A stretch of 32,000 bases of DNA from an uncultured archaeon (GTDB taxonomy: Archaea; Asgardarchaeota; Jordiarchaeia; Jordiarchaeales; Jordiarchaeaceae): contig CAZECW010000173.1 of the NCBI GenBank assembly GCA_964510585.1, forward strand, positions 1-32,000. Direction: 5' to 3'. A program made the translations under genes and the position numbers. The number at the start of each line of letters is the position of its first letter. The first letter of the stretch is position 1. The notes beneath the pieces are model-generated. The model did no database searches. It saw nothing but the letters and a program-made list of their open reading frames with translations, and was not told the DNA's origin. Positions 3,207-12,446 of this stretch are shown piece by piece.

Positions 3207-4241
3207 TCATAAACCCAGTGCCCTTTTTATAATCTTGACTATTTCCAGTATAGACGCTTTTTCCAACTCTGAAGAATTTAATAGTCCATCCTGGGAGATT
3301 ATTAGAGGGACTTTCATCTCTTCTTCTGTGATTCCGCCGTGGCTTCCCTTTATTTTCATATCTCCTAGCTCGTAGCCCTTCTCGGCGGTTACAACTAGGT
3401 CACCGCTTCGGGGATGCGAAAATTTTAATTCGGAAATTCGTTTGCCATCCATAACCTCTAGAATACCTTTCGTTTCACTTAGAAGCTTGTACACCTCATC
3501 GATTTGTTTTGGGGAATTTATGTATATGTGGCTGGTTCTGTGTGAGGGCAGAGAGATAGCGTCTAGCTTTTTGTTTTTCAGTAATTTATTTAGTTGTATT
3601 TGTTTTTGGCCTTCTGTCATGCCGTGATCAGCGGAAACGATCATGCAGATTTCTTGGTCTAGCGATTTGTACTCCTCGAAGGTTTTCTCTAGAATGTTAT
3701 CTACTTCTTCTATAATTTTTAGGACTTCTCTGCTTTTTGGTCCGTAGCTTTCGCCGAAGCTGTCTACTGCGGGGAAATTGGCTATTATCAGGTCAGGCTC
3801 TTCTCTCCTTATCAGCTTTATGGATTCTTCAAAAACTTTACTGTTCTGACTGGAAACTGGAAAACTTTGAATGTGTTTTTTTGAAATAATGTGTTTCGCC
3901 CCTTTAGTGACTGGTTCCCCTATGGCTGCTGTTTTAAATCCTGCAGCTTGAGCTTCCTCGAAAATGGTTGCAGCTTCCAGGCAAAGGTTTGGATCGTAAA
4001 AATCAAAATTTCTTGTTTCCCTAGTTTCCCTATCGTAGAACTGGTTTCCTATTATGCCGTGCTCTCCGGGATATACTCCAGTAATTATGGATGTGTGCCC
4101 AGTGTAGGTTGCTGTGGGGAATACTGCGTGGCAGGATAGGGTGGATGCTCCCCTATTTGATAATTTATCTAGGAATAGTGTTTTGGCGTTTATTATCCAA
4201 TTAATATTGCATCCATCAAGAATTGCGAGGAATACTTTCAT
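3207..4241 (-). CDS. Alkaline phosphatase superfamily, nucleotide pyrophosphatase/phosphodiesterase (NPP-like), no signal peptide, 344 aa
   Basis: Motifs ILDG, FPTATYTGH (Thr nucleophile), HGIIGN, SADHGM and GSHGG. DSFGE stands in place of DxxGH. Confidence 0.9.
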   Translation of the reverse strand: MKVFLAILDGCNINWIINAKTLFLDKLSNRGASTLSCHAVFPTATYTGHTSIITGVYPGEHGIIGNQFYDRETRETRNFDFYDPNLCLEAATIFEEAQAAGFKTAAIGEPVTKGAKHIISKKHIQSFPVSSQNSKVFEESIKLIRREEPDLIIANFPAVDSFGESYGPKSREVLKIIEEVDNILEKTFEEYKSLDQEICMIVSADHGMTEGQKQIQLNKLLKNKKLDAISLPSHRTSHIYINSPKQIDEVYKLLSETKGILEVMDGKRISELKFSHPRSGDLVVTAEKGYELGDMKIKGSHGGITEEEMKVPLIISQDGLLNSSELEKASILEIVKIIKRALGL

Positions 4242-4303
4242 TTTTTTTCATCCGGTGAGGCTTGTTCACTAGGTTTAAATTAATAGTGGTGGGAACTGCT
4301 AAT

Positions 4304-5521
4304 ATGTATTTTCAGGATGTTATACATGGTAAAATTAGGGTTAATGAACTGGAGCAGAAACTTCTAGGCACCAGTGTGATGAAGTCCCTTTCAGGAAAGA
4401 TGGATATAGGTAATATTAACCTAGTTTATCCTGGCGCGAGGCATACACGTCTAGAACATAGCTTAGGAACACTACATGTTGCCAACCGGATTTGCGACAT
4501 ACTATTAAAAAAAGGCTATGAGATTGGGGAGGAGGTGGAGAGTATTAGGCTTTCAGCTCTTCTCCACGATGTGGGTCACGGTCCCTTTTCTCACGGATCA
4601 GAGATTATTCTTCAAGAAAAAACAGGCCTCACACATGAGGAAATGAGTAAGGAAATAGTTATGGACGAAAAATCGGAGATAAATGAGGTGCTCAGAGACT
4701 CAGGATTAAGTAAAAGGTTAATCAGCGAGATAGCGAACAACATTTTGGGAGTGAATAGGAGAAGACCGTTCATAGGAGAAATCATTCATTGGATTGTGGA
4801 CGCAGACAAACTGGACTATCTACCTAGGGACTCCCTCTCCACAGGATTTTTACCTTACCTAGTTCAGAGCTCACACATAATCGATTCTATGAAAATTCTA
4901 GACGAACACATAGTTTTTGAGAAAAGCGTGGTTCCCTACTTGGACTCCATGGTTTTCGCAGAAGCCATTTACTACAAAAATATTCACCACCACCCCACAG
5001 TAAGAAAAGCGGATCAAACCCTATCCAGGGCCATAAAGATCGCGGTTGAAAAGGGGATAACAACAATATTTGAAATCCAAAAAATGACTGACGAACAAAT
5101 AATTTCCTTCCTAAAAAAGGCGGGAGGAACCATTACCCAACTAACATCCAAAATACAGTATAAACCGTTAGACACCATCCTAACTATAAAATGGGAGGAA
5201 CTTGATAAGGATATAGTAAAACAATTATTAGAAGTAGCCAAAGACAAACAGGAAAAAGAAAACATAGAGAAGAGTATAGCTGAACACATAAACAGCGACC
5301 CCAACCTCACTATACTAGACATACCTGAACTCCCAAGCATCCAAGAAGCAAATACACCCATAATGCTCAATGATGAGAAAAAATCTCTCCGAGACATTTC
5401 AAGCATAACCAGAGCAATAAGCGAAAATCAACCCACCCAATGGACCCTACACATTTACTCAGAAAAAGCACCTAAAGAAAGCCTAGATAGCTTTCGAAAA
5501 TTCTTCTTATCACAGATTTAA
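4304..5521 (+). CDS. HD-domain phosphohydrolase, SAMHD1/YdhJ-like dNTPase family, 405 aa
   Basis: Motifs DVIHG, VYPGARHTRLEHSLG, LLHDVGHGPFSH, THE and DADKLDYLPRD. Start trimmed to ATG 4304. Confidence 0.92.
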   Translation: MYFQDVIHGKIRVNELEQKLLGTSVMKSLSGKMDIGNINLVYPGARHTRLEHSLGTLHVANRICDILLKKGYEIGEEVESIRLSALLHDVGHGPFSHGSEIILQEKTGLTHEEMSKEIVMDEKSEINEVLRDSGLSKRLISEIANNILGVNRRRPFIGEIIHWIVDADKLDYLPRDSLSTGFLPYLVQSSHIIDSMKILDEHIVFEKSVVPYLDSMVFAEAIYYKNIHHHPTVRKADQTLSRAIKIAVEKGITTIFEIQKMTDEQIISFLKKAGGTITQLTSKIQYKPLDTILTIKWEELDKDIVKQLLEVAKDKQEKENIEKSIAEHINSDPNLTILDIPELPSIQEANTPIMLNDEKKSLRDISSITRAISENQPTQWTLHIYSEKAPKESLDSFRKFFLSQI

Positions 5522-5915
5522 AAAAACCTACAACAAGAGACAATTAGGAAAACAACCTCTCCCCAAATTTCTGTAAAAGTCGGATTCAGTAAATAATTTT
5601 CCTGTACAATTCCCTTACCAAAAATCGCATACCTAGGATCCCAACACTAATTGGGAATTATCAATATTTCTTTTAAACAGTGTTCTAGGGAATGCTGTTC
5701 GGTGCCAGCCAACCTAATGATGCGAACAGGACTATTATAGCAAATTCGTAAATAATATTAGGAACACAATTGTAGCCTTGCCCACCCGACTAATTTGAAT
5801 CAAGAAAAACTTTGTTTAAGAAAGTTTTAAATTTTTCAAAACGGTAAGAATCATAAGAATGCGACTGAAGGATAATATCACAATAGAGCCAAATCATAAG
5901 GAGAAGTGTAGTACT

Positions 5916-6443
5916 ATGTCTGGAGATTACGATTATCTCTTCAAAATCATAGTAATCGGTGACGGAGCCGTCGGAAAGACAAGTTTGACTGTCCGCTTTT
6001 CGCAGGGATACTTCAAGGAAGATTACAAGATGACCATAGGCGTTGATTTTGCTGTGAAGACGGTTAGTGTTAATACGAATAATGGTCTTAAGACGGCTAA
6101 GTTGCAGATTTGGGATACTGGCGGTCAGGAGAGGTTTTCTTATATTCGTCCATTGTATTATCGTGGCGCTATGGGTGGATTGTTGGTTTATGATGTAACT
6201 AAGCGGGAGTCTTTTGAACATTTGGAGAATTGGTTAGAAGAAGTTGGCAAGCACTGTCCTTCTATCCCTATGGTTATGGTTGGTAACAAAACAGATATGC
6301 CGGGTAGAGCGGTTTCTCTAGAGGAGGCTTTGGAGTACGCAATTAATCATAATATGGTATATTTTGAGACTAGTGCAAAGGAGGGCACCAATGTGGAGGC
6401 CGCATTTGGAGATCTTACTAGAATTCTGATTGATTACACTTAG
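5916..6443 (+). CDS. Rab-like small GTPase (eukaryotic signature protein type), 175 aa, no C-terminal prenylation cysteines
   Basis: DYDYLFKII, GDGAVGKT, TIGVDF, KLQIWDTGGQERF, YYRGA, LVYDVT, GNKTD and ETSAK give all G boxes plus RabF motifs. ATG 5916 follows AGGAG. Confidence 0.95.
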   Translation: MSGDYDYLFKIIVIGDGAVGKTSLTVRFSQGYFKEDYKMTIGVDFAVKTVSVNTNNGLKTAKLQIWDTGGQERFSYIRPLYYRGAMGGLLVYDVTKRESFEHLENWLEEVGKHCPSIPMVMVGNKTDMPGRAVSLEEALEYAINHNMVYFETSAKEGTNVEAAFGDLTRILIDYT

Positions 6444-6526
6444 TCTTTGCGACTGTTTTTCTTTTTTTGGTTATATTCCTTTACAAAAATCATTGACGCG
6501 AAGGCTGCCGACCTTCGCGGGAAGTA

Positions 6527-7924
6527 TCAAAAACTGTTTATTTCCATGTTTGGTTCATTTATTACTTTGCCTTTTGGTGTGTATATTGGTGCTTTTGGTA
6601 GTAGGTTGAAGGTATTTCTGAGGGCGAGTTGGTAGGCTCCTACGTCTAGGACTATGAGGATGTCTCCGGGTTGAGTTTTAGGAAGTTTTCGAGGGCCGGT
6701 GTTGTTTTTTGACCAGGCAAAGGTGTCGTTAGAATCACAAGTGATTCCAGCTATGTTGTAGTATTGTGTGGGTTTTTGGGTAGGTTTGGTAGCGTTGACT
6801 ATTTCGAAGTGTTGCGCTATCCAGACCGCGTCGTTGGTGTCCGTTAGAGCGCTTCCATCCGTTATTATCCAGGGGTGTTGTTGAAGTGGTTGACTTATTT
6901 CTGTTGCTTTGATTATTAATATCATGATATTTGCGGTTAGCCATCTCCCTGTTTCGATTATGATTGTGGGAGGGCTGGCTTTGTTTTCTTGGTAGGTTTT
7001 GATTATTTGTTGGGTGGTTTTTTTGGCGTATTCCTCGATGGTGTAGTTGGGATTGAAGGGGTGGTTTTCTGTTTTGTAGTAGTTGACTGCGATTCCTCCG
7101 CCAAGGTTCAGGTTTTCTATGGTTGTTCCTAGTTCCTTTGTCATTTGTGTTGCGTATTGGGATAGTAGTTGTGCGTTTTGGACTAGTTTTTGGAGTTGGG
7201 TTATTTGGGTTCCTATGTGGGATTGTAGGGTTGTTATTTTGATTTTTGAATTTTTGAGGAGTTTGATTGCTTGGGGTAGTTGCTCGGGTGGAATTCCGAA
7301 TCTTGCAGCTCCACTGGGTTTTTCGTAGTTTTGAATGCGGTGGGTTAGGTTTAGGGATATTCCGGCTTCTAGTTCGATATTTTGTTTTTGGCAGAGGTTT
7401 CTCGTGTATTTGATTTCTTCGATAGAGTTGAAGTTTAGGGTTATGTTTCTTTCTCTTTGTAGGCTGATTACCGTCTGTATCAGATTTTTGTTCTGCTTTT
7501 TTGAACTCCAGCTTTTTGAAACTCCGTTACAGATAATGTATGGTACATTTTTTAGTTGTGTTAGGGTGTATTTTAATTCGTAGATGTTTACTACTTCTAT
7601 TCCAAATTTTTGGTCTACTAGGGTCTGGGCTACTTGAGGGAGGTGGTTGGCGGCCAAGGCGTAGCAGGGTTTGAAGGAGGGGTATTTTTTGAAGGCTTCT
7701 TGAAGCCTTTGAGCATTTCTTTTTAATTGGTCCAAACTTAGGACGTAGATGCGGGTTCCCAAGGTTTCTGCTAGCTTTTGAATGCTGACCCCTTCAAAGA
7801 AGATTTGATTATCAGCGAGTTTTAGGGGTTCTGCGAAATCTTTCTTGCCAATGTAATCTTTAGGATGAGGTGTAGACATTTGTGTAAATCTCTCCATGGT
7901 CTCCTCTTTAGGGTTGTGCGACAT
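6527..7924 (-). CDS. Diaminopimelate/ornithine decarboxylase-like (fold-type III PLP) protein lacking the Schiff-base lysine
   Basis: Motifs LAETLGTRIYV, YALAAN (canonical YAxKAN), RFGI, HIGTQI, NLGGG, ETGRWL, GITCDSND and GAY. The start could instead be ATG 7897. Confidence 0.85.
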   Translation of the reverse strand: MSHNPKEETMERFTQMSTPHPKDYIGKKDFAEPLKLADNQIFFEGVSIQKLAETLGTRIYVLSLDQLKRNAQRLQEAFKKYPSFKPCYALAANHLPQVAQTLVDQKFGIEVVNIYELKYTLTQLKNVPYIICNGVSKSWSSKKQNKNLIQTVISLQRERNITLNFNSIEEIKYTRNLCQKQNIELEAGISLNLTHRIQNYEKPSGAARFGIPPEQLPQAIKLLKNSKIKITTLQSHIGTQITQLQKLVQNAQLLSQYATQMTKELGTTIENLNLGGGIAVNYYKTENHPFNPNYTIEEYAKKTTQQIIKTYQENKASPPTIIIETGRWLTANIMILIIKATEISQPLQQHPWIITDGSALTDTNDAVWIAQHFEIVNATKPTQKPTQYYNIAGITCDSNDTFAWSKNNTGPRKLPKTQPGDILIVLDVGAYQLALRNTFNLLPKAPIYTPKGKVINEPNMEINSF

Positions 7925-8148
7925 TTGAGTAAAAGTTATAGACTTTTTGGAGGTACGCAGGGATTCTAGAAGATATTAAGTTTTCCTTAAAAGTCTAATT
8001 TAGTTTTATATCCATTTACTCTCCCTTTTTGAGCCGGACCAAAGATTACTAGATTTTTCGCCATAATTGTGGAGTTTTTAAGTTACAATAACATAAGCAT
8101 TAGAAGTGTGCTTTACAAGACTTGGATAATTTTGGTGGTTAGGGGTGA

Positions 8149-8349
8149 ATGGTTTTGGTAGTCCCAGTTTGTTGTACTATTATTTTGGCATATTTTTGGG
8201 TCTGGTCAGGTTTAGGTAGTGCGGAAACCAGACTTTACAGTGTTCTGGTTGTAGTATCGCTGCTATTAATAATCGTGTTGATCATAAAGTTTGTTTTTAT
8301 GGGAGAGAGGAAGAGTACAGCGTGTTTTGAGAGGAGCTTATGGGCGTAG
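8149..8349 (+). CDS. Possible small two-TM protein, 66 aa
   Basis: ATG directly after AGGGGTGA and two hydrophobic stretches. It lies in a G/T-skewed zone that can generate such ORFs by chance. Confidence 0.3.
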   Translation: MVLVVPVCCTIILAYFWVWSGLGSAETRLYSVLVVVSLLLIIVLIIKFVFMGERKSTACFERSLWA

Positions 8350-8385
8350 TCTTGAAAAAAACGCCTTTAAAATGTTTTTGGGGTT

Positions 8386-9921
8386 TTAAGTTTCGTAGGT
8401 TTTGATTACTTCGGGTATTAAAGGTATGAGGTCGGTTGCAGTTATGTGATAGCCTTTGTCTTGAACTGCTTTATCTCCGGCCTTCCCGTTTAGGAACGCG
8501 GCGGCTACTGCCGCTCTGAATGGTTCATAGCCTTGAGACAGGAAGGCGGCGCAGATTCCGCTTAGAACATCTCCTGTTCCGCCTACGGACATTCCGGGGT
8601 TGCCAGTTGTGTTGATTTTTGTTCTTCTGCCGTCGGAAATGATGTCCTCGTGGGCTTTGAGGAGTATGGTGACTCCTAGCTCTCTTGCCCAGTTTTCAAC
8701 TGTTTTTATTCGGTTTTTTAATTCCGAGGGGGGTGGCATTTTTTGTCCAGTTAATTGTAGGAATTCTCCTTGGTGGGGTGTGAGCACAGTTTTTGTGCCG
8801 TGGAGCATTTTATTTTCTTTTCCTAGGATTTTTATTGCGTCTGCATCCACAAGTAGGGGTAAATCTCTCTTTTTTATGAGTTGAAAAATTTCAGGGATGG
8901 TTTCTATGGTTTTTTCGTGTAGTCCGAGACCCGGCCCCACAACTGATGCGGTTGCCCAGTCTTGGATTAAGCTACTTATGAGGGGGAGAGATTCATTGTT
9001 TAACACTTCTCCTGGAAATTCTCTTACTATTAGGTCGGGGGAGAATCCCCTAATTATCGGAGCGATTTTTGAGGGGGCGACAACAATTACGAGGTCAACA
9101 CCAGTTCTGAGGGCAGAGAGAGCAGTTAGCGCTGGTGCACCAGTATAGTATATGCTTCCGCCAATTATGAGAACTTTACCAAAATCACCCTTATGAGAAT
9201 GGAGACCTCTCTTTTTTATTACGGACTTCACATCTCCAGGACCTGCTATGACCTCTGCTTCTGGAGGTATACCAATAGGCCATACTATGAGTTCGCCAGT
9301 ACAGGTTTTGTTTAATAGTCCGGGTTTTGCTTTGTGGAAGGTTACTGTTAGGTTGGCTTGGACCACTTTGTCGTGGACTTCACCGCTCTCTGGATTTAGT
9401 CCTGATGGTAAGTCTACTGCTATTTTGAAGGCCTTCGCGGAGTTGAATAGATCTATGGCGGTGGAGAAGGGTTCCCGGATTTTTCCCTCTATTCCTGTTC
9501 CTAGCATGGCGTCAATCAGTATATCCGCTTTCTGGATTAAGTCTTTGATTTCCATTAGTTCTGAGGAGTCCCTAATTATAGTTTTTTTTACATTGAGAAT
9601 CATTTTTTCTAGGGCTTTCCAATTTTGTCTAGCCTCAGGGGTTCGAATATTTTCTGGTTGGCCTATGAGAATTAGATGTACCTCCGCGCCAAGTGAGGCA
9701 AGGTGTCTTGCGGCGACAAATCCGTCTCCACCATTATTTCCTGTTCCTGAGAAAATTATGATGCTTGATTTTTCCACTTTTTTTCTTTTTATTATATTTT
9801 CTACTATTCCTCTTCCAGCGTTCTCCATAAGTAGTAATCTGGGGACTCCCAAGTACTCTGAGTTTTCGTCTGCTATTCTCATATCTTCTACGGATATAGT
9901 TTCCAAATTCTGAGCCTCCAC
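8386..9921 (-). CDS. nnr: Bifunctional NAD(P)H-hydrate epimerase/dehydratase (NnrE-NnrD fusion, YjeF), 511 aa
   Basis: Motifs LMENAG, GNNGGDG, DAMLGTG, DLPSG, HKGDFG, YTGAP, GPGLG, DADA, TPHQGEF and GGTGDVLSG. Confidence 0.95.
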   Translation of the reverse strand: MEAQNLETISVEDMRIADENSEYLGVPRLLLMENAGRGIVENIIKRKKVEKSSIIIFSGTGNNGGDGFVAARHLASLGAEVHLILIGQPENIRTPEARQNWKALEKMILNVKKTIIRDSSELMEIKDLIQKADILIDAMLGTGIEGKIREPFSTAIDLFNSAKAFKIAVDLPSGLNPESGEVHDKVVQANLTVTFHKAKPGLLNKTCTGELIVWPIGIPPEAEVIAGPGDVKSVIKKRGLHSHKGDFGKVLIIGGSIYYTGAPALTALSALRTGVDLVIVVAPSKIAPIIRGFSPDLIVREFPGEVLNNESLPLISSLIQDWATASVVGPGLGLHEKTIETIPEIFQLIKKRDLPLLVDADAIKILGKENKMLHGTKTVLTPHQGEFLQLTGQKMPPPSELKNRIKTVENWARELGVTILLKAHEDIISDGRRTKINTTGNPGMSVGGTGDVLSGICAAFLSQGYEPFRAAVAAAFLNGKAGDKAVQDKGYHITATDLIPLIPEVIKTYET

Positions 9922-10020
9922 CGCTTACAAAATAAAATATGAAGAGGTTGCAGTTTTAACCTTTACCTTTATTGTTAATTGTTCAAAATCTTTTTATTTC
10001 CCAGTGTGATTTTTCCCCTC

Positions 10021-10650
10021 ATGCGACAAAGATTATTACTATTTTTAAAAAAGGTCAAGGCTATTATTAAGGCACCCAACTTTGCGTGCACCCAGTGCGG
10101 AGAATGTTGCTCTAGGTACATCATATGTGTGACTCACAAAGATGCTTATAGAGTAGCCAAAGAGTATGGATTGGATCCTCATGATTTCTTGGATTGCATT
10201 ATTCCTGAGAAAAGCGTTGAGGAAACATATAAGGGTGTTCCTAGATTCTTGGGTGAAGATGGGAAAAGGTGGGTGCTCTGTTTTAAGACCAACGACAAAA
10301 ACAGCGGTTGCTGTTTTAATAATGGGGGGCCTTGCTCGATTTATCCCGTTCGACCCTTGGTTTGCCGGGCATTCCCCTTTCTCTGGAGAAGATTGCTCCA
10401 TGGCCACAAATTCATATTTAATAGTGAAGCCTTGGAGTTTTGTAAAGGATTAGGAGCCAAGGAGAATAAGTTTGACTTTGACAGTGTAGAAAGGGACATG
10501 ATTCAATCAGAAAAAGAAGACAAGGAATACGCCAAACTTGTGGACGAATGGAATAGACTGGTGGAGGGAAAAAAAATAAAGTCTCCCTCATTGGACAGTT
10601 TTATTGACTTTTTTATGAAAACCCTCTCGGATGAGGAAAATGAGTTATAG
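10021..10650 (+). CDS. YkgJ-family cysteine-cluster (Zn/Fe-S chelating) protein
   Basis: CTQCGECC, C...CSIYPVRPLVCRAFPF and a distal FCKG cysteine. Start trimmed to ATG 10021. Confidence 0.87.
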   Translation: MRQRLLLFLKKVKAIIKAPNFACTQCGECCSRYIICVTHKDAYRVAKEYGLDPHDFLDCIIPEKSVEETYKGVPRFLGEDGKRWVLCFKTNDKNSGCCFNNGGPCSIYPVRPLVCRAFPFLWRRLLHGHKFIFNSEALEFCKGLGAKENKFDFDSVERDMIQSEKEDKEYAKLVDEWNRLVEGKKIKSPSLDSFIDFFMKTLSDEENEL

Positions 10651-11506
10651 AAACTTGTATCTCTACCCTCAAAACATTTTCTTGGGAAGCACAACTTCAT
10701 ACGAGGAAGCTGACTTCGCCCTTTTTGGAGTTCCATTCGACGGCACGTGCACCTTTTTGCCTGGTGCAAGGTTCGGACCGACAGTAATTAGGGAAGCCTC
10801 GTGCAACCTAGAATCGTTCAGTCTAAGAAGTTTCAGAGACGCTGAGGATGCCAAAATCTGCGACTTAGGGGATATCGCTGTAATTCCAGGGGATGTTAAT
10901 CAGACACTAGATCGAGTGAAAAAAGTTGTAGGGGAATTAAAACAGGACGGCAAAAAAATTATAATGCTGGGAGGCGAACACACCATAACACTGGGGGCCA
11001 TAAGGGGATTTGGAATGGATGTAGGAATAATAGATTTTGATGCACATATGGACTTGAGAAACAAATATCTGGATCAGCAAATCTCCCATGCCACATTAAT
11101 GAGGAGGATGGTGGAAGAAGGCGTGGAAATCCTTCAAATAGGGGTGAGGTCAATCTGTAGAGAGGAGTACGAATTTATTTCTCAAAAAAAGTGGAACTAT
11201 GTCACAGCTCTTGAAGTGGAGAGAGAGGGGATAAAAAAAGCTGTGGACAAAATAAAAGAGTTTCAATCAAGAAAAGACCGCATATATTTGACCATAGATG
11301 TGGATGTAATTGACCCCTCCTACGCTCCCGATGTAGGAAACCCGGAACCTTGTGGATTAACACCGACCCAGGTTATAGATATTTTGGAAAATTGCGATAA
11401 AGTTGTGGGCTTTGATGTGGTGGAGGTAACTCACGGCGGACGAATAACAGCCTTGGTTGCAGCCAAAATAATTCTGGAGTTACTTTGTACCATCAAGTTT
11501 CAATAA
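10640..11506 (+). CDS. speB: Agmatinase (ureohydrolase/arginase family)
   Basis: Motifs GVPFDGT..FLPGARFGP, GGEHTIT, DAHMD and DVDVID...PDVGNPEPCG. The start overlaps the stop of the YkgJ gene. Confidence 0.9.
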   Translation: MSYRNLYLYPQNIFLGSTTSYEEADFALFGVPFDGTCTFLPGARFGPTVIREASCNLESFSLRSFRDAEDAKICDLGDIAVIPGDVNQTLDRVKKVVGELKQDGKKIIMLGGEHTITLGAIRGFGMDVGIIDFDAHMDLRNKYLDQQISHATLMRRMVEEGVEILQIGVRSICREEYEFISQKKWNYVTALEVEREGIKKAVDKIKEFQSRKDRIYLTIDVDVIDPSYAPDVGNPEPCGLTPTQVIDILENCDKVVGFDVVEVTHGGRITALVAAKIILELLCTIKFQ

Positions 11507-11531
11507 TTTTTGGTTTATTGTAATTTTCAGG

Positions 11532-12311
11532 TTATATTTTAATCTCTTCGAGGGGCTTCATAAATCCCACTTTTTTGTGTCTTATATAGACTTGGGGAAT
11601 TTGGGCACTTTTTGCCAACTTTACAAGCAGGTCTAAACTTGGTGGTTTAATTTTTTTCAATTCGTGGCTAAAGGCATTTGCTGGCTCAAATTCTTGAAGG
11701 GTGTAGCTGGCTTTTTTCTTTTCTGCTTTTGAAATGTATCCGAGGCCCCTCAAAACTTCACCAATATTTTTGAAGTATGCTTCTTCATCATTTAGGGAGG
11801 GAATGACAGTGGTTCTCAAATCTGCATATGAACTACTCCCAAAAACAGTCTCTAGGGTCGCCATTAGGTTTTCAATCACCTTCTCACCGTCATGAAACCC
11901 CACTATTTTGCTGTAAAGTGCTGGGTCGTTAAAGGGAGCTTTAATATCTATGGAAATTAGATCCGCACTATTTACCAGTTTTCTTATATTTTCTGGAAAG
12001 AAACCATTTGTATCAAATCCGAAAGAAAGGTTCTTCCTTCTACAAAAATTAGCAATTTCTAAAAGAACCTCAGGATAAAGGGTGGGTTCTCCGCCCGAAA
12101 CTTTAACGGCCTCCACAAGTGAGCTAGCTTTTTCGATTCTCGCTAAAACTTTGGATAGTTCCACTTCCTGATTCGGGGTTACCTCGAGCATTCTCCAGTT
12201 ATGGCACATAGGACACCTAAAGGAACACCCCGCCATAAAAATCACCATAGCAGGTTTTTGGGGGTAATCAATGGTACTAATATCCAAAATTCCGTAGACA
12301 TATACCTTCAT
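11532..12311 (-). CDS. Radical SAM activase, anaerobic ribonucleotide reductase activating (NrdG/PflA-like) family
   Basis: STIDYP, GCSFRCPMCHN (CxxxCxxC), SGGEPT, DTNG, DIKAP and RTTVIP. Start trimmed to ATG 12311. Confidence 0.88.
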   Translation of the reverse strand: MKVYVYGILDISTIDYPQKPAMVIFMAGCSFRCPMCHNWRMLEVTPNQEVELSKVLARIEKASSLVEAVKVSGGEPTLYPEVLLEIANFCRRKNLSFGFDTNGFFPENIRKLVNSADLISIDIKAPFNDPALYSKIVGFHDGEKVIENLMATLETVFGSSSYADLRTTVIPSLNDEEAYFKNIGEVLRGLGYISKAEKKKASYTLQEFEPANAFSHELKKIKPPSLDLLVKLAKSAQIPQVYIRHKKVGFMKPLEEIKI

Positions 12312-12446
12312 CGAAACCACCGGTTGACGGTAACTACAGAAAAATTCTTTAAGAACATGAAACATTCCTAAACAATTAATTTAAAATAGTTATTTAAATA
12401 TAATAGATTCCCCATTGAAACTAAGGGAAAAGGAGAACTGTGGAAG

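Follow-up and report, generated by a model that had tools for sequence, protein, structure and literature searches.

The lysine that binds pyridoxal 5'-phosphate (PLP) as a Schiff base is commonly treated as the defining residue of PLP enzymes, and the locus studied here raises the question of what becomes of such a protein when a whole lineage has given that residue up. The window, by which we mean the whole stretch of DNA analysed, comprises positions 1 to 32,000 (32,000 nucleotides) of contig CAZECW010000173.1 (assembly GCA_964510585.1), from an uncultured Asgard archaeon of the Jordiarchaeaceae. The gene in question, at 6527-7924 on the reverse strand, encodes a homologue of diaminopimelate decarboxylase (DAPDC) and ornithine decarboxylase (ODC) with alanine at the lysine position. 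The comparisons presented below indicate that this loss is fixed clade-wide in Freyarchaeia/Jordarchaeia and is neither error nor decay, and that the protein belongs to a subfamily that is DokD/DAPDC-like, not LysA. In the literature searched, we found no description of a clade of natural fold-type III PLP proteins devoid of the Schiff-base lysine, nor of the subfamily, and such a clade is apparently undescribed there.

The open reading frame (ORF) translates without stops into 465 amino acids, so that its description as intact in the initial annotation holds. Its start is uncertain because orthologues begin at the equivalents of Met10 (7895-7897) or Met16 (7877-7879); the true protein may have 456 or 450 residues, with an N terminus 9 or 15 residues shorter. 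Both Pfam domains were matched above their cut-offs (Orn_Arg_deC_N, 87 bits; Orn_DAP_Arg_deC, 41 bits), which makes the protein a member of PF02784 plus PF00278, with an N-terminal TIM barrel and a C-terminal beta domain, i.e., of the fold-type III group, the alanine-racemase-fold or group IV PLP decarboxylases. In the HMMER alignment with Methanocaldococcus jannaschii DAPDC (1tuf/1twi), the query reads 'yalaan' opposite 'yaykan', so that the [YF]AxKAN motif is missing and Ala91 lies opposite the lysine of 1tuf. The initial annotation had reported this replacement and had pointed out that the GCC codon is three changes away from AAA/AAG, and both statements proved correct; it was also right that the arginine of the RxNP motif is missing, its place being taken by Ser190, and that the HIGTQ, GGG, ExGR (here ETGR), GITCD (with its Cys) and GAY motifs are all retained in the translation. 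Annotation pipelines name the gene diaminopimelate decarboxylase, a label that cannot be right.

A sequence search of 5.8 billion proteins returned relatives in two tiers. The first consists of about a dozen sequences of 65-93% identity, whose named sources are Freyarchaeota, Jordarchaeia or 'Lokiarchaeia' metagenome-assembled genomes (MAGs). The second (36-43% identity) has among its sources Theionarchaea, Methanomethylicia, Atabeyarchaeum and Njordarchaeum MAGs; the sister clades that keep the lysine, of 37-43% identity, are those of Atabeyarchaeia, Methanomethylicia, Bathyarchaeia and Theionarchaea. When 1.84 billion representatives were scanned exhaustively with HMMER, no more than four clusters at 50% identity scored above 1e-80, followed by a drop to 1e-38, the level of ordinary DAPDC-like proteins, and to judge from these searches the Lys-less protein and its Lys-bearing (Lys-type) relatives make up a subfamily that is small and distinct. 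All first-tier sequences have YA[LV]AAN in the alignment, with S, A or C at position 190; all second-tier sequences have YAxKAN, nearly always with Arg at position 190. The initial annotation had called for a test of the conservation of the alanine: it is present in all 11 full-length orthologues, one from a complete chromosome, encoded by GCC or GCA, the Lys-type genes using AAA or AAG.

As an account of the missing lysine, we regard a one-codon sequencing or assembly error, or a neutrally drifting pseudogene, as hardly credible. Ala-type sequences come from independent assemblies, several studies and several habitats; they share the residue through two codons, of which GCA is two changes from AAA; the gene is free of indels in contigs assembled from four further hot-spring runs; and the ORFs of the orthologues are intact, with ratios of nonsynonymous to synonymous substitution rates (dN/dS) of about 0.2. 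In a maximum-likelihood tree obtained by a quick method, the careful search being unfinished, the subfamily forms one clade (support, 100; stem, 1.04) and the Ala-type proteins one clade inside it (support, 100; stem, 0.76), so that the label changes once. The stem of the Ala-type clade is not longer than those of the Lys-type clades, and branch lengths are alike.

Pairwise dN/dS, estimated by NG86 and YN00, lies between 0.12 and 0.25 within the Ala clade, a range that includes close, unsaturated pairs (dS of 0.13-0.28) and leaves out one near-identical pair (0.04-0.05). The Ala-type gene is clearly under purifying selection, with dN/dS far below 1; this was a further check proposed by the initial annotation, which had named lysine-bearing orthologues together with neutral decay of this copy as the finding that would undo its view, and neither was seen. 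Eight neighbouring genes in the same genomes gave values of 0.03-0.19, and pairs of Lys-type genes gave 0.06-0.14, with dS saturated. The dS of the Ala-type gene to its 69%-identical relatives is 0.77-0.93, and that of all eight neighbours (3207-12365) is 1.1-3.4. In the window's sub-branch, the amino-acid composition of the proteins is deviant, with much Q, T, N and K. Since the dS of the gene is below that of its neighbours and the amino-acid make-up is unusual, its dN/dS may be inflated.

The pattern of change in the active site is selective. The Lys-type clades are far more divergent than the Ala clade and share 103 invariant columns; in the Ala clade, 75 of these are invariant and identical, 7 are invariant and different, and 21 vary, about half of the latter deviating in one sequence only. 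Positions conserved within each group and different between the groups, when no more than one exception is allowed among the Ala-type and two among the Lys-type sequences, are K91A, E150Q, S239T, L368W, L369I, S379T, L385P, A395T, G399N, D407N and Y439F, to which the replacement of R190 by a small residue has to be added. In the catalytic loop, C396, D397 and D400 are invariant, and A395T, G399N and D407N are fixed differences of the clade. Among the residues kept are His236, Gly275-277, Glu324, Gly326, Arg327, Tyr431, Glu116, Asp362, Asp365, Cys396, Asp397 and Asp400; the counterparts in ODC, by motif position, are His197, Gly235-237, Glu274, Gly276, Arg277, Tyr389, Glu94, Asp332, Cys360, Asp361 and Asp364. 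By sequence equivalence, the ligands that would bind PLP noncovalently (H236, T239, G275-277, E324, R327 and Y431) are thus present, and the motif-inferred PLP ligands other than the lost ones are invariant, save for the conservative change of Ser239 to Thr. The putative PLP cup apart from Lys91 and Arg190 is therefore kept. The family alignment showed no conserved His that could act as a substitute base, as in ColD.

The AlphaFold2 model of the protein (predicted local distance difference test [pLDDT], 86.7; predicted TM-score [pTM], 0.89) found its best Foldseek matches in the DAPDC 1twi and in DokD structures, with TM-scores of 0.76-0.82 to 1twi/1tuf. A homodimer prediction run with two PLP, whose score covers the chains and leaves the cofactor unscored, reached 0.91, versus 0.01 for the best control; a score of 0.91 is attained by 20 of 30 solved homodimers and by 1 of 23 solved single chains. 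In three runs, contacts agreed to at least 83% and the pLDDT of the partner was at least 89. Such a pass denotes likeness, not binding, and memory of solved relatives may be its source. The predicted dimer and the invariant C396, D397 and D400 fit the head-to-tail homodimer in which Cys and Asp act in trans. In the dimer model, Ala91 contacts residues 439-441 of the partner subunit, and the interface also holds residues 394-396, 398-399, 401 and 404-406. Based on these interface contacts of Ala91, of residues 439-441' and of the catalytic loop, the replacements K91A, A395T, G399N, D407N and Y439F are grouped around the active site predicted between the subunits.

The same model bears on the possibility that the lysine has been relocated, so that a normal internal aldimine would be formed by Lys406' of the family-specific loop, Lys118 or Lys444'. 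Residues 404-406 and 434-443 lie in the predicted interface beside the partner's residue 91, and position 406 is K in 10 of the 11 Ala-clade members and mostly Arg in the Lys-type proteins. Each of the three candidates, however, is K or R in several Lys-type members, and K406 and K118 each deviate in one Ala-clade member. At the predicted interface positions, no lysine combined invariance within the Ala clade with the absence of K or R from the Lys-type proteins, so that the alternative raised by the initial annotation, another lysine reaching the PLP, found no candidate there, and we consider this explanation very improbable.

What the protein may do is best approached from the Asgard genome that holds it, which comes from hot springs, measures 3.78 Mb and is 96% complete. 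It contains a single PF02784 gene, the one under study, and so do the complete Freyarchaeia chromosome and, more generally, all 6 genomes of the genus (its own included, one complete), the gene being Ala-type throughout. Neither the host genome nor the complete chromosome has a pyruvoyl arginine decarboxylase (PvlArgDC), and the host genome has no OKR_DC_1 decarboxylase of the aspartate aminotransferase fold; the search for a canonical lysA or arginine decarboxylase elsewhere in the genome, another check suggested by the initial annotation, thus returned none by PF02784, PvlArgDC or OKR_DC_1. The single AdoMet_dc gene, also single in the complete chromosome, overlaps the spermidine synthase gene (speE) and is followed by a BpsA-like gene; given the overlap with speE, it most likely encodes S-adenosylmethionine decarboxylase (AdoMetDC). 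TiaS was found in 3 of the 3 Freyarchaeia genomes tested, and agmatinase-family genes and SpeD-SpeE are present as well.

TiaS requires agmatine. Because of this need, arginine decarboxylase is essential in most archaea, for the decoding of tRNA-Ile via TiaS (PMC8503589). With every known type of arginine decarboxylase absent, the Lys-less protein is the sole visible candidate for agmatine synthesis in these genomes. Among 201 Asgard genomes, PvlArgDC is absent from 9 of the 9 that hold the subfamily, a complementarity that is consistent with such a role and unspecific, since several other families lack both. The sister family within the same order offers a comparison: each of its 5 genomes has exactly one PF02784 gene, canonical, Lys-bearing and outside the subfamily. 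The protein concerned shows YASKAN and CDGGD, has no RPxLY and scores above the lysA cut-off. In one sister-family locus, the 436-residue product of L061:6153-7463 (+) has a lysA equivalog score of 394 for a cut-off of 298; as it is the only fold-III decarboxylase of its genome, it is likely a basic-amino-acid decarboxylase, and pipelines would call it LysA.

Based on these results, we favour, with a probability of roughly 0.4, the reading that the protein is a functional, selectively maintained and, by prediction, homodimeric decarboxylase that works independently of lysine, derives from a DokD/DAPDC-like basic-amino-acid decarboxylase and is the lineage's source of agmatine or a diamine. In its favour, the PLP cup is intact, the proton-donor Cys does not vary, the Phe at the carboxylate pocket is that of ODC, the genome offers nothing that the protein could regulate, and the need for agmatine would otherwise go unmet. 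More tentatively still, the protein could be the real, essential arginine decarboxylase of Freyarchaeia/Jordarchaeia, operating without an internal aldimine. Lys91, Arg190 and Tyr439 were replaced once, on the stem of Freyarchaeia/Jordarchaeia, by Ala, a small residue and Phe. PLP would be held noncovalently by the phosphate cup, and the substrate amino acid would form an aldimine directly with the free aldehyde. CO2 would depart toward the Phe439'/Cys396' side, as in ODC, the C-alpha would be protonated by Cys396', and the amine would be freed by hydrolysis or by exogenous amines instead of by transimination. The product, agmatine or a related diamine, would feed TiaS, agmatinase and SpeE.

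The Lys-type relatives inform on the ancestral function. In two complete Atabeyarchaeia chromosomes, in the Asgard MAG LC30 and in a Bathyarchaeia MAG, the Lys-type protein is the only candidate for a basic-amino-acid decarboxylase of a known type, PvlArgDC and AdoMet_dc being absent from these four genomes, and this gene set fits a role in agmatine or diamine synthesis. The two complete Atabeyarchaeia chromosomes (G003 and G004; loci L025 and L026) have no match to TiaS_FLD, PvlArgDC, AdoMet_dc or OKR_DC_1, and an agmatinase-family gene is present. A stronger association than the fit with an agmatine role is that with a ThrC-like gene, which is convergent with the Lys-type gene in Atabeyarchaeia and co-directional and overlapping with it in Methanomethylicia. 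The ThrC-like partner carries a zinc ribbon at its N terminus and a tail at its C terminus, and the proteins of Atabeyarchaeia and Methanomethylicia are 57% identical across phyla. Of the 201 Asgard genomes, the three Atabeyarchaeia with the Lys-type decarboxylase are the only ones to have this type of ThrC. The pair appears to be a two-enzyme module that is as yet undescribed; one possibility is that a replacement reaction on O-phosphohomoserine or O-phosphoserine precedes the decarboxylation. The module is perhaps part of an amine route independent of S-adenosylmethionine (SAM), given that AdoMet_dc is absent from the Atabeyarchaeia, LC30 and Bathyarchaeia genomes; a Methanomethylicia genome has one AdoMet_dc gene.

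Several of our observations weigh against a Lys-independent decarboxylase. As the Lys-type protein travels with the ThrC-like enzyme, the ancestral job was perhaps not arginine decarboxylation; it may have been the decarboxylation of the ThrC-like enzyme's product. Freyarchaeia, of which 0 of 6 genomes have the partner ThrC clade (three other ThrC paralogues being present), have lost both the partner and the lysine, and the ancestral job may have disappeared along with the latter. The dN/dS of the Ala-type gene is about twice that of its neighbours and of Lys-type pairs, indicating somewhat relaxed selection; G392, S398, G405, H234 and W372, invariant in the Lys-type proteins and near the catalytic loop, vary among the Ala-type sequences; and the counterpart of ODC Arg154 is lost as a second change. 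In the DAPDC/DokD branch, where the reaction goes with inversion, the lysine may also be the proton donor to C-alpha. Agmatine import or an unrecognised arginine decarboxylase would likewise close the metabolic gap. On purification, the ODC mutant K69A reportedly retains a PLP-putrescine aldimine, firmly bound, and its turnover is very slow, Osterman and colleagues having reportedly measured, in 1999, a decrease in kcat of about 10^4-fold. We know of no natural fold-type III PLP enzyme that lacks the Schiff-base lysine.

Many of these observations would be expected of a noncatalytic binder that, once the pathway of the ThrC-like partner had been lost, gave up Lys91, Arg190 and Tyr439 and kept the PLP cup. 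Such a protein would hold PLP noncovalently, or as an aldimine with an amine or an amino acid that cannot be displaced, and would serve stoichiometrically as a sensor, a buffer or a carrier, its putative ligand being a basic amino acid, a polyamine or vitamin B6. The loss of the universal catalytic lysine together with a second residue at the PLP edge, the distribution of the ThrC-like partner (0/6 Freyarchaeia, 3/3 Atabeyarchaeia, and also Methanomethylicia), the doubled dN/dS and the relaxed positions of the catalytic loop all agree with it, as does the stability of the aldimine in ODC K69A. Furthermore, most known Lys-less PLP-fold proteins are noncatalytic; LCB1 of serine palmitoyltransferase, for example, depends for its function on LCB2, its Lys-bearing heterodimer partner. 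On the other hand, there is no second fold-III decarboxylase to regulate or to pair with and no fused output domain, and the syntenic neighbours all look like housekeeping genes; the invariant Cys396, a proton donor, and Glu324 would be superfluous for binding; and TiaS, agmatinase and SpeE of Freyarchaeia would be left without agmatine synthesis. Overall, we hold a pseudoenzyme binder and Lys-independent chemistry to be about equally probable on computational grounds.

Catalysis of another kind is unlikely in our estimation, and part of the evidence points to it nevertheless. Without an internal aldimine, the protein might shuttle between pyridoxamine 5'-phosphate (PMP) and PLP in a decarboxylation-dependent transamination that yields an aldehyde, or might accept a bulkier substrate filling the cavity left by Lys91, Arg190 and the hydroxyl of Tyr439. 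Three side chains at the C4'/O3' edge of the cofactor have indeed become smaller or less polar in a coordinated and fixed manner while the rest of the pocket was kept. The crystal structure 9cpz of a DokD variant contains, by its title, PMP and 4-guanidinobutanal, which shows that the fold can perform decarboxylative transamination, and Lys-less enzymes using PMP exist in fold type I, where the dehydratases ColD and E1 have a catalytic His in place of the lysine. However, no aminotransferase, oxidoreductase or keto-acid enzyme adjoins the gene to recycle PMP, the replacement is Ala and not a His-type base as in ColD/E1, and fold type III offers no precedent.

The case is unusual in that a selected, clade-wide loss of the lysine coincides with an otherwise kept cofactor site, with the lack of an active paralogue and with a need for agmatine, both in the decoding of tRNA-Ile and for polyamines. 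An active protein would mean that a natural enzyme can do without the internal aldimine, and it would supply the arginine decarboxylase step that is missing in these Asgard archaea. If it is inactive, Freyarchaeia would have to import agmatine or own an unrecognised decarboxylase, and the protein would be a rare stand-alone pseudoenzyme of a PLP fold in a prokaryote. The coordinates of the gene, of its sites and of the associated genes are collected in Table 1.

Table 1. Positions of the Lys-less gene, its active-site residues and associated genes (window coordinates unless a locus handle is given)
Feature	Position	Strand	Basis or remark
Lys-less DokD/DAPDC-like fold-type III protein	6527-7924	-	Translation, Pfam, HMMER, AlphaFold2, Foldseek
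Ala91, position of the PLP Schiff-base lysine (YALAAN), codon GCC	7652-7654	-	Alignment, codons
Ser190, where Lys-type relatives carry the RxNP Arg; ODC Arg154 by motif position	7355-7357	-	
HIGT motif: His236 (ring stacking), Thr239 (phosphate contact)	7208-7219	-	Thr239 is Ser in Lys-type relatives
Gly275-Gly277, phosphate-binding loop	7094-7102	-	Invariant family-wide
Glu324-Thr-Gly-Arg327 (ExGR: pyridine-N and phosphate ligands)	6944-6955	-	E, G and R invariant
Catalytic loop Thr395-Cys396-Asp397-x-Asn399-Asp400 and family-specific loop to Lys406-Asn407	6704-6742	-	
Tyr431 of GAY (phosphate ligand)	6632-6634	-	Invariant within the family, nearly so in the wider alignment
Phe439, equivalent to DokD Tyr430	6608-6610	-	Tyr in all Lys-type relatives; predicted contact with Ala91 of the other subunit
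Arginase-family ureohydrolase (agmatinase-like)	10631-11506	+	2.7 kb off; clade-conserved synteny
Lys-type gene with ThrC-like gene, L008	L008:6635-8011 with L008:8001-9398	+ (6635-8011)	
Lys-type gene with ThrC-like gene, L006	L006:9591-11093 with L006:8001-9542	- (9591-11093)	
Further Lys-type/ThrC-like pairs	L013, L047		

The surroundings of the gene are conserved within the clade, where a Ras-like GTPase, an NAD(P)HX repair enzyme, a CxxCxxCC protein, an agmatinase and radical-SAM genes are syntenic. The agmatinase that the initial annotation had noticed about 2.7 kb away is confirmed as an arginase/agmatinase-family gene, and the arrangement is kept in the 69%-identical relatives and in the complete chromosome; the neighbourhood link is weak, since the synteny is absent in the Lys-type relatives. 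A Ras/Roc-type small GTPase gene at 5859-6443 (+), with which 1435-2130 of the window is listed, faces the Lys-less gene tail-to-tail at a distance of 83 bp; its synteny extends to the 69%-identical relatives, whose loci have more small GTPases nearby. Directly upstream on the same strand, across a 461-bp gap, 8386-9921 (-) encodes a bifunctional NAD(P)H-hydrate epimerase/dehydratase (YjeF_N plus Carb_kinase), an arrangement that is conserved in the clade and has no evident functional link.

Among known systems, LysA of M. jannaschii (1twi/1tuf) matches best overall in the PDB (E = 1e-32; 25-26% identity) and shares the HIGSQ, GGG, EPGR and GAY motifs with the window protein, which lacks its RPxLY, the Glu of its Cys loop and its Schiff-base lysine. 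Where LysA has RPxLY, the window protein has TDGSALTDTNDAV, and its Cys loop is CDSND, not CESGD; the Lys-type relatives are without these LysA features too. The LysA/ODC fold given by the initial annotation is borne out by Pfam, AlphaFold2 and Foldseek; the LysA identity is not, the protein scoring 204.2 bits with TIGR01048 for a cut-off of 297.9, lacking the diaminopimelate (DAP)-binding residues, and the host genome and five subfamily-holding genomes having no DapF above the cut-off and no DapB_C. Likewise, RPxLY is missing as the initial annotation had said, yet not as part of a degeneration: the motif is absent from the entire subfamily, Lys-keeping members included, and from DokD, and an absence so general marks a non-DAP substrate, not decay. 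With SpeA the likeness is confined to the barrel, which alone aligns, not the architecture of ~630 amino acids, and the scores (127-131 bits) fall short of the cut-offs of 624 (TIGR01273) and 369 (NF003763).

DokD (DOKDC, the D-ornithine/D-lysine decarboxylase STM2360 of Salmonella; PDB 6n2h, 8d2y and 9cpz) has the same two-domain fold-III architecture, is among the top Foldseek matches and is the best sequence match to the C-terminal half of the Lys-type relatives. DokD and the subfamily have in common a long insertion before the WxxxD strand, a CD(G/S)GD Cys loop with Asp instead of Glu and the lack of RPxLY; a FAWxxxxTGPRKLP loop is the subfamily's own and differs from DokD. In alignments with the wild-type and Y430F chains, DokD Tyr430 corresponds to family residue Tyr439 and Cys387 to Cys396. 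DokD keeps the Schiff-base Lys and the Arg, whereas the window protein has Ala91, Ser190 and Phe439, the latter a natural equivalent of Y430F; this exchange is said, going by the title of work by Phillips and Hoang in 2022, to alter the stereospecificity of DokD. Membership in DokD itself was rejected, with 133.9 bits for NF052544 against a cut-off of 700, the Cys kept, Tyr430 present as Phe and the Lys absent.

For ODC, 20 residues are listed as critical (PMC5518511), and all have counterparts by motif position except Lys69 and Arg154 (for the role of Arg154, see PMC5518511 and PMC3543441), with the conservative replacements Asp88 to Glu110, Ser200 to Thr239 and Lys169 to Arg208. Phe439 corresponds to ODC Phe397, which binds the leaving carboxylate (PMC5518511); the window protein nonetheless belongs to the DAPDC/DokD branch, not to that of ODC. 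Compared with ODC K69A, it is natural and fixed in a clade, and it has lost the Arg154 equivalent as well.

The antizyme inhibitors (AZIN1/2), the trypanosomatid AdoMetDC prozyme and the deoxyhypusine synthase (DHS) paralogue are, likewise, impaired homologues of polyamine enzymes kept by selection. AZIN mostly keeps the lysine and has major substitutions at 5 of 16 PLP-binding positions, including the equivalents of Arg154 and Ala111; it cannot bind PLP, and the change of Arg154 is counted among the causes (PMC3543441). The window protein shows the opposite pattern, losing Lys91 and Arg190 with the rest of the cofactor site invariant. AZIN and the prozymes act on an active paralogue or on antizyme, whereas here the PLP cup is intact and no second PF02784 gene exists in 6 Freyarchaeia genomes. 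As the protein is the sole fold-III decarboxylase of these genomes, the prozyme/antizyme-inhibitor model fails, and with it the heterodimer with an active paralogue or the antizyme-inhibitor-like regulator envisaged by the initial annotation, for which neither the 96%-complete genome nor the complete chromosome provides a partner. ColD, E1 and LCB1 are natural Lys-less PLP-fold proteins, as is the window protein, but they belong to fold type I.

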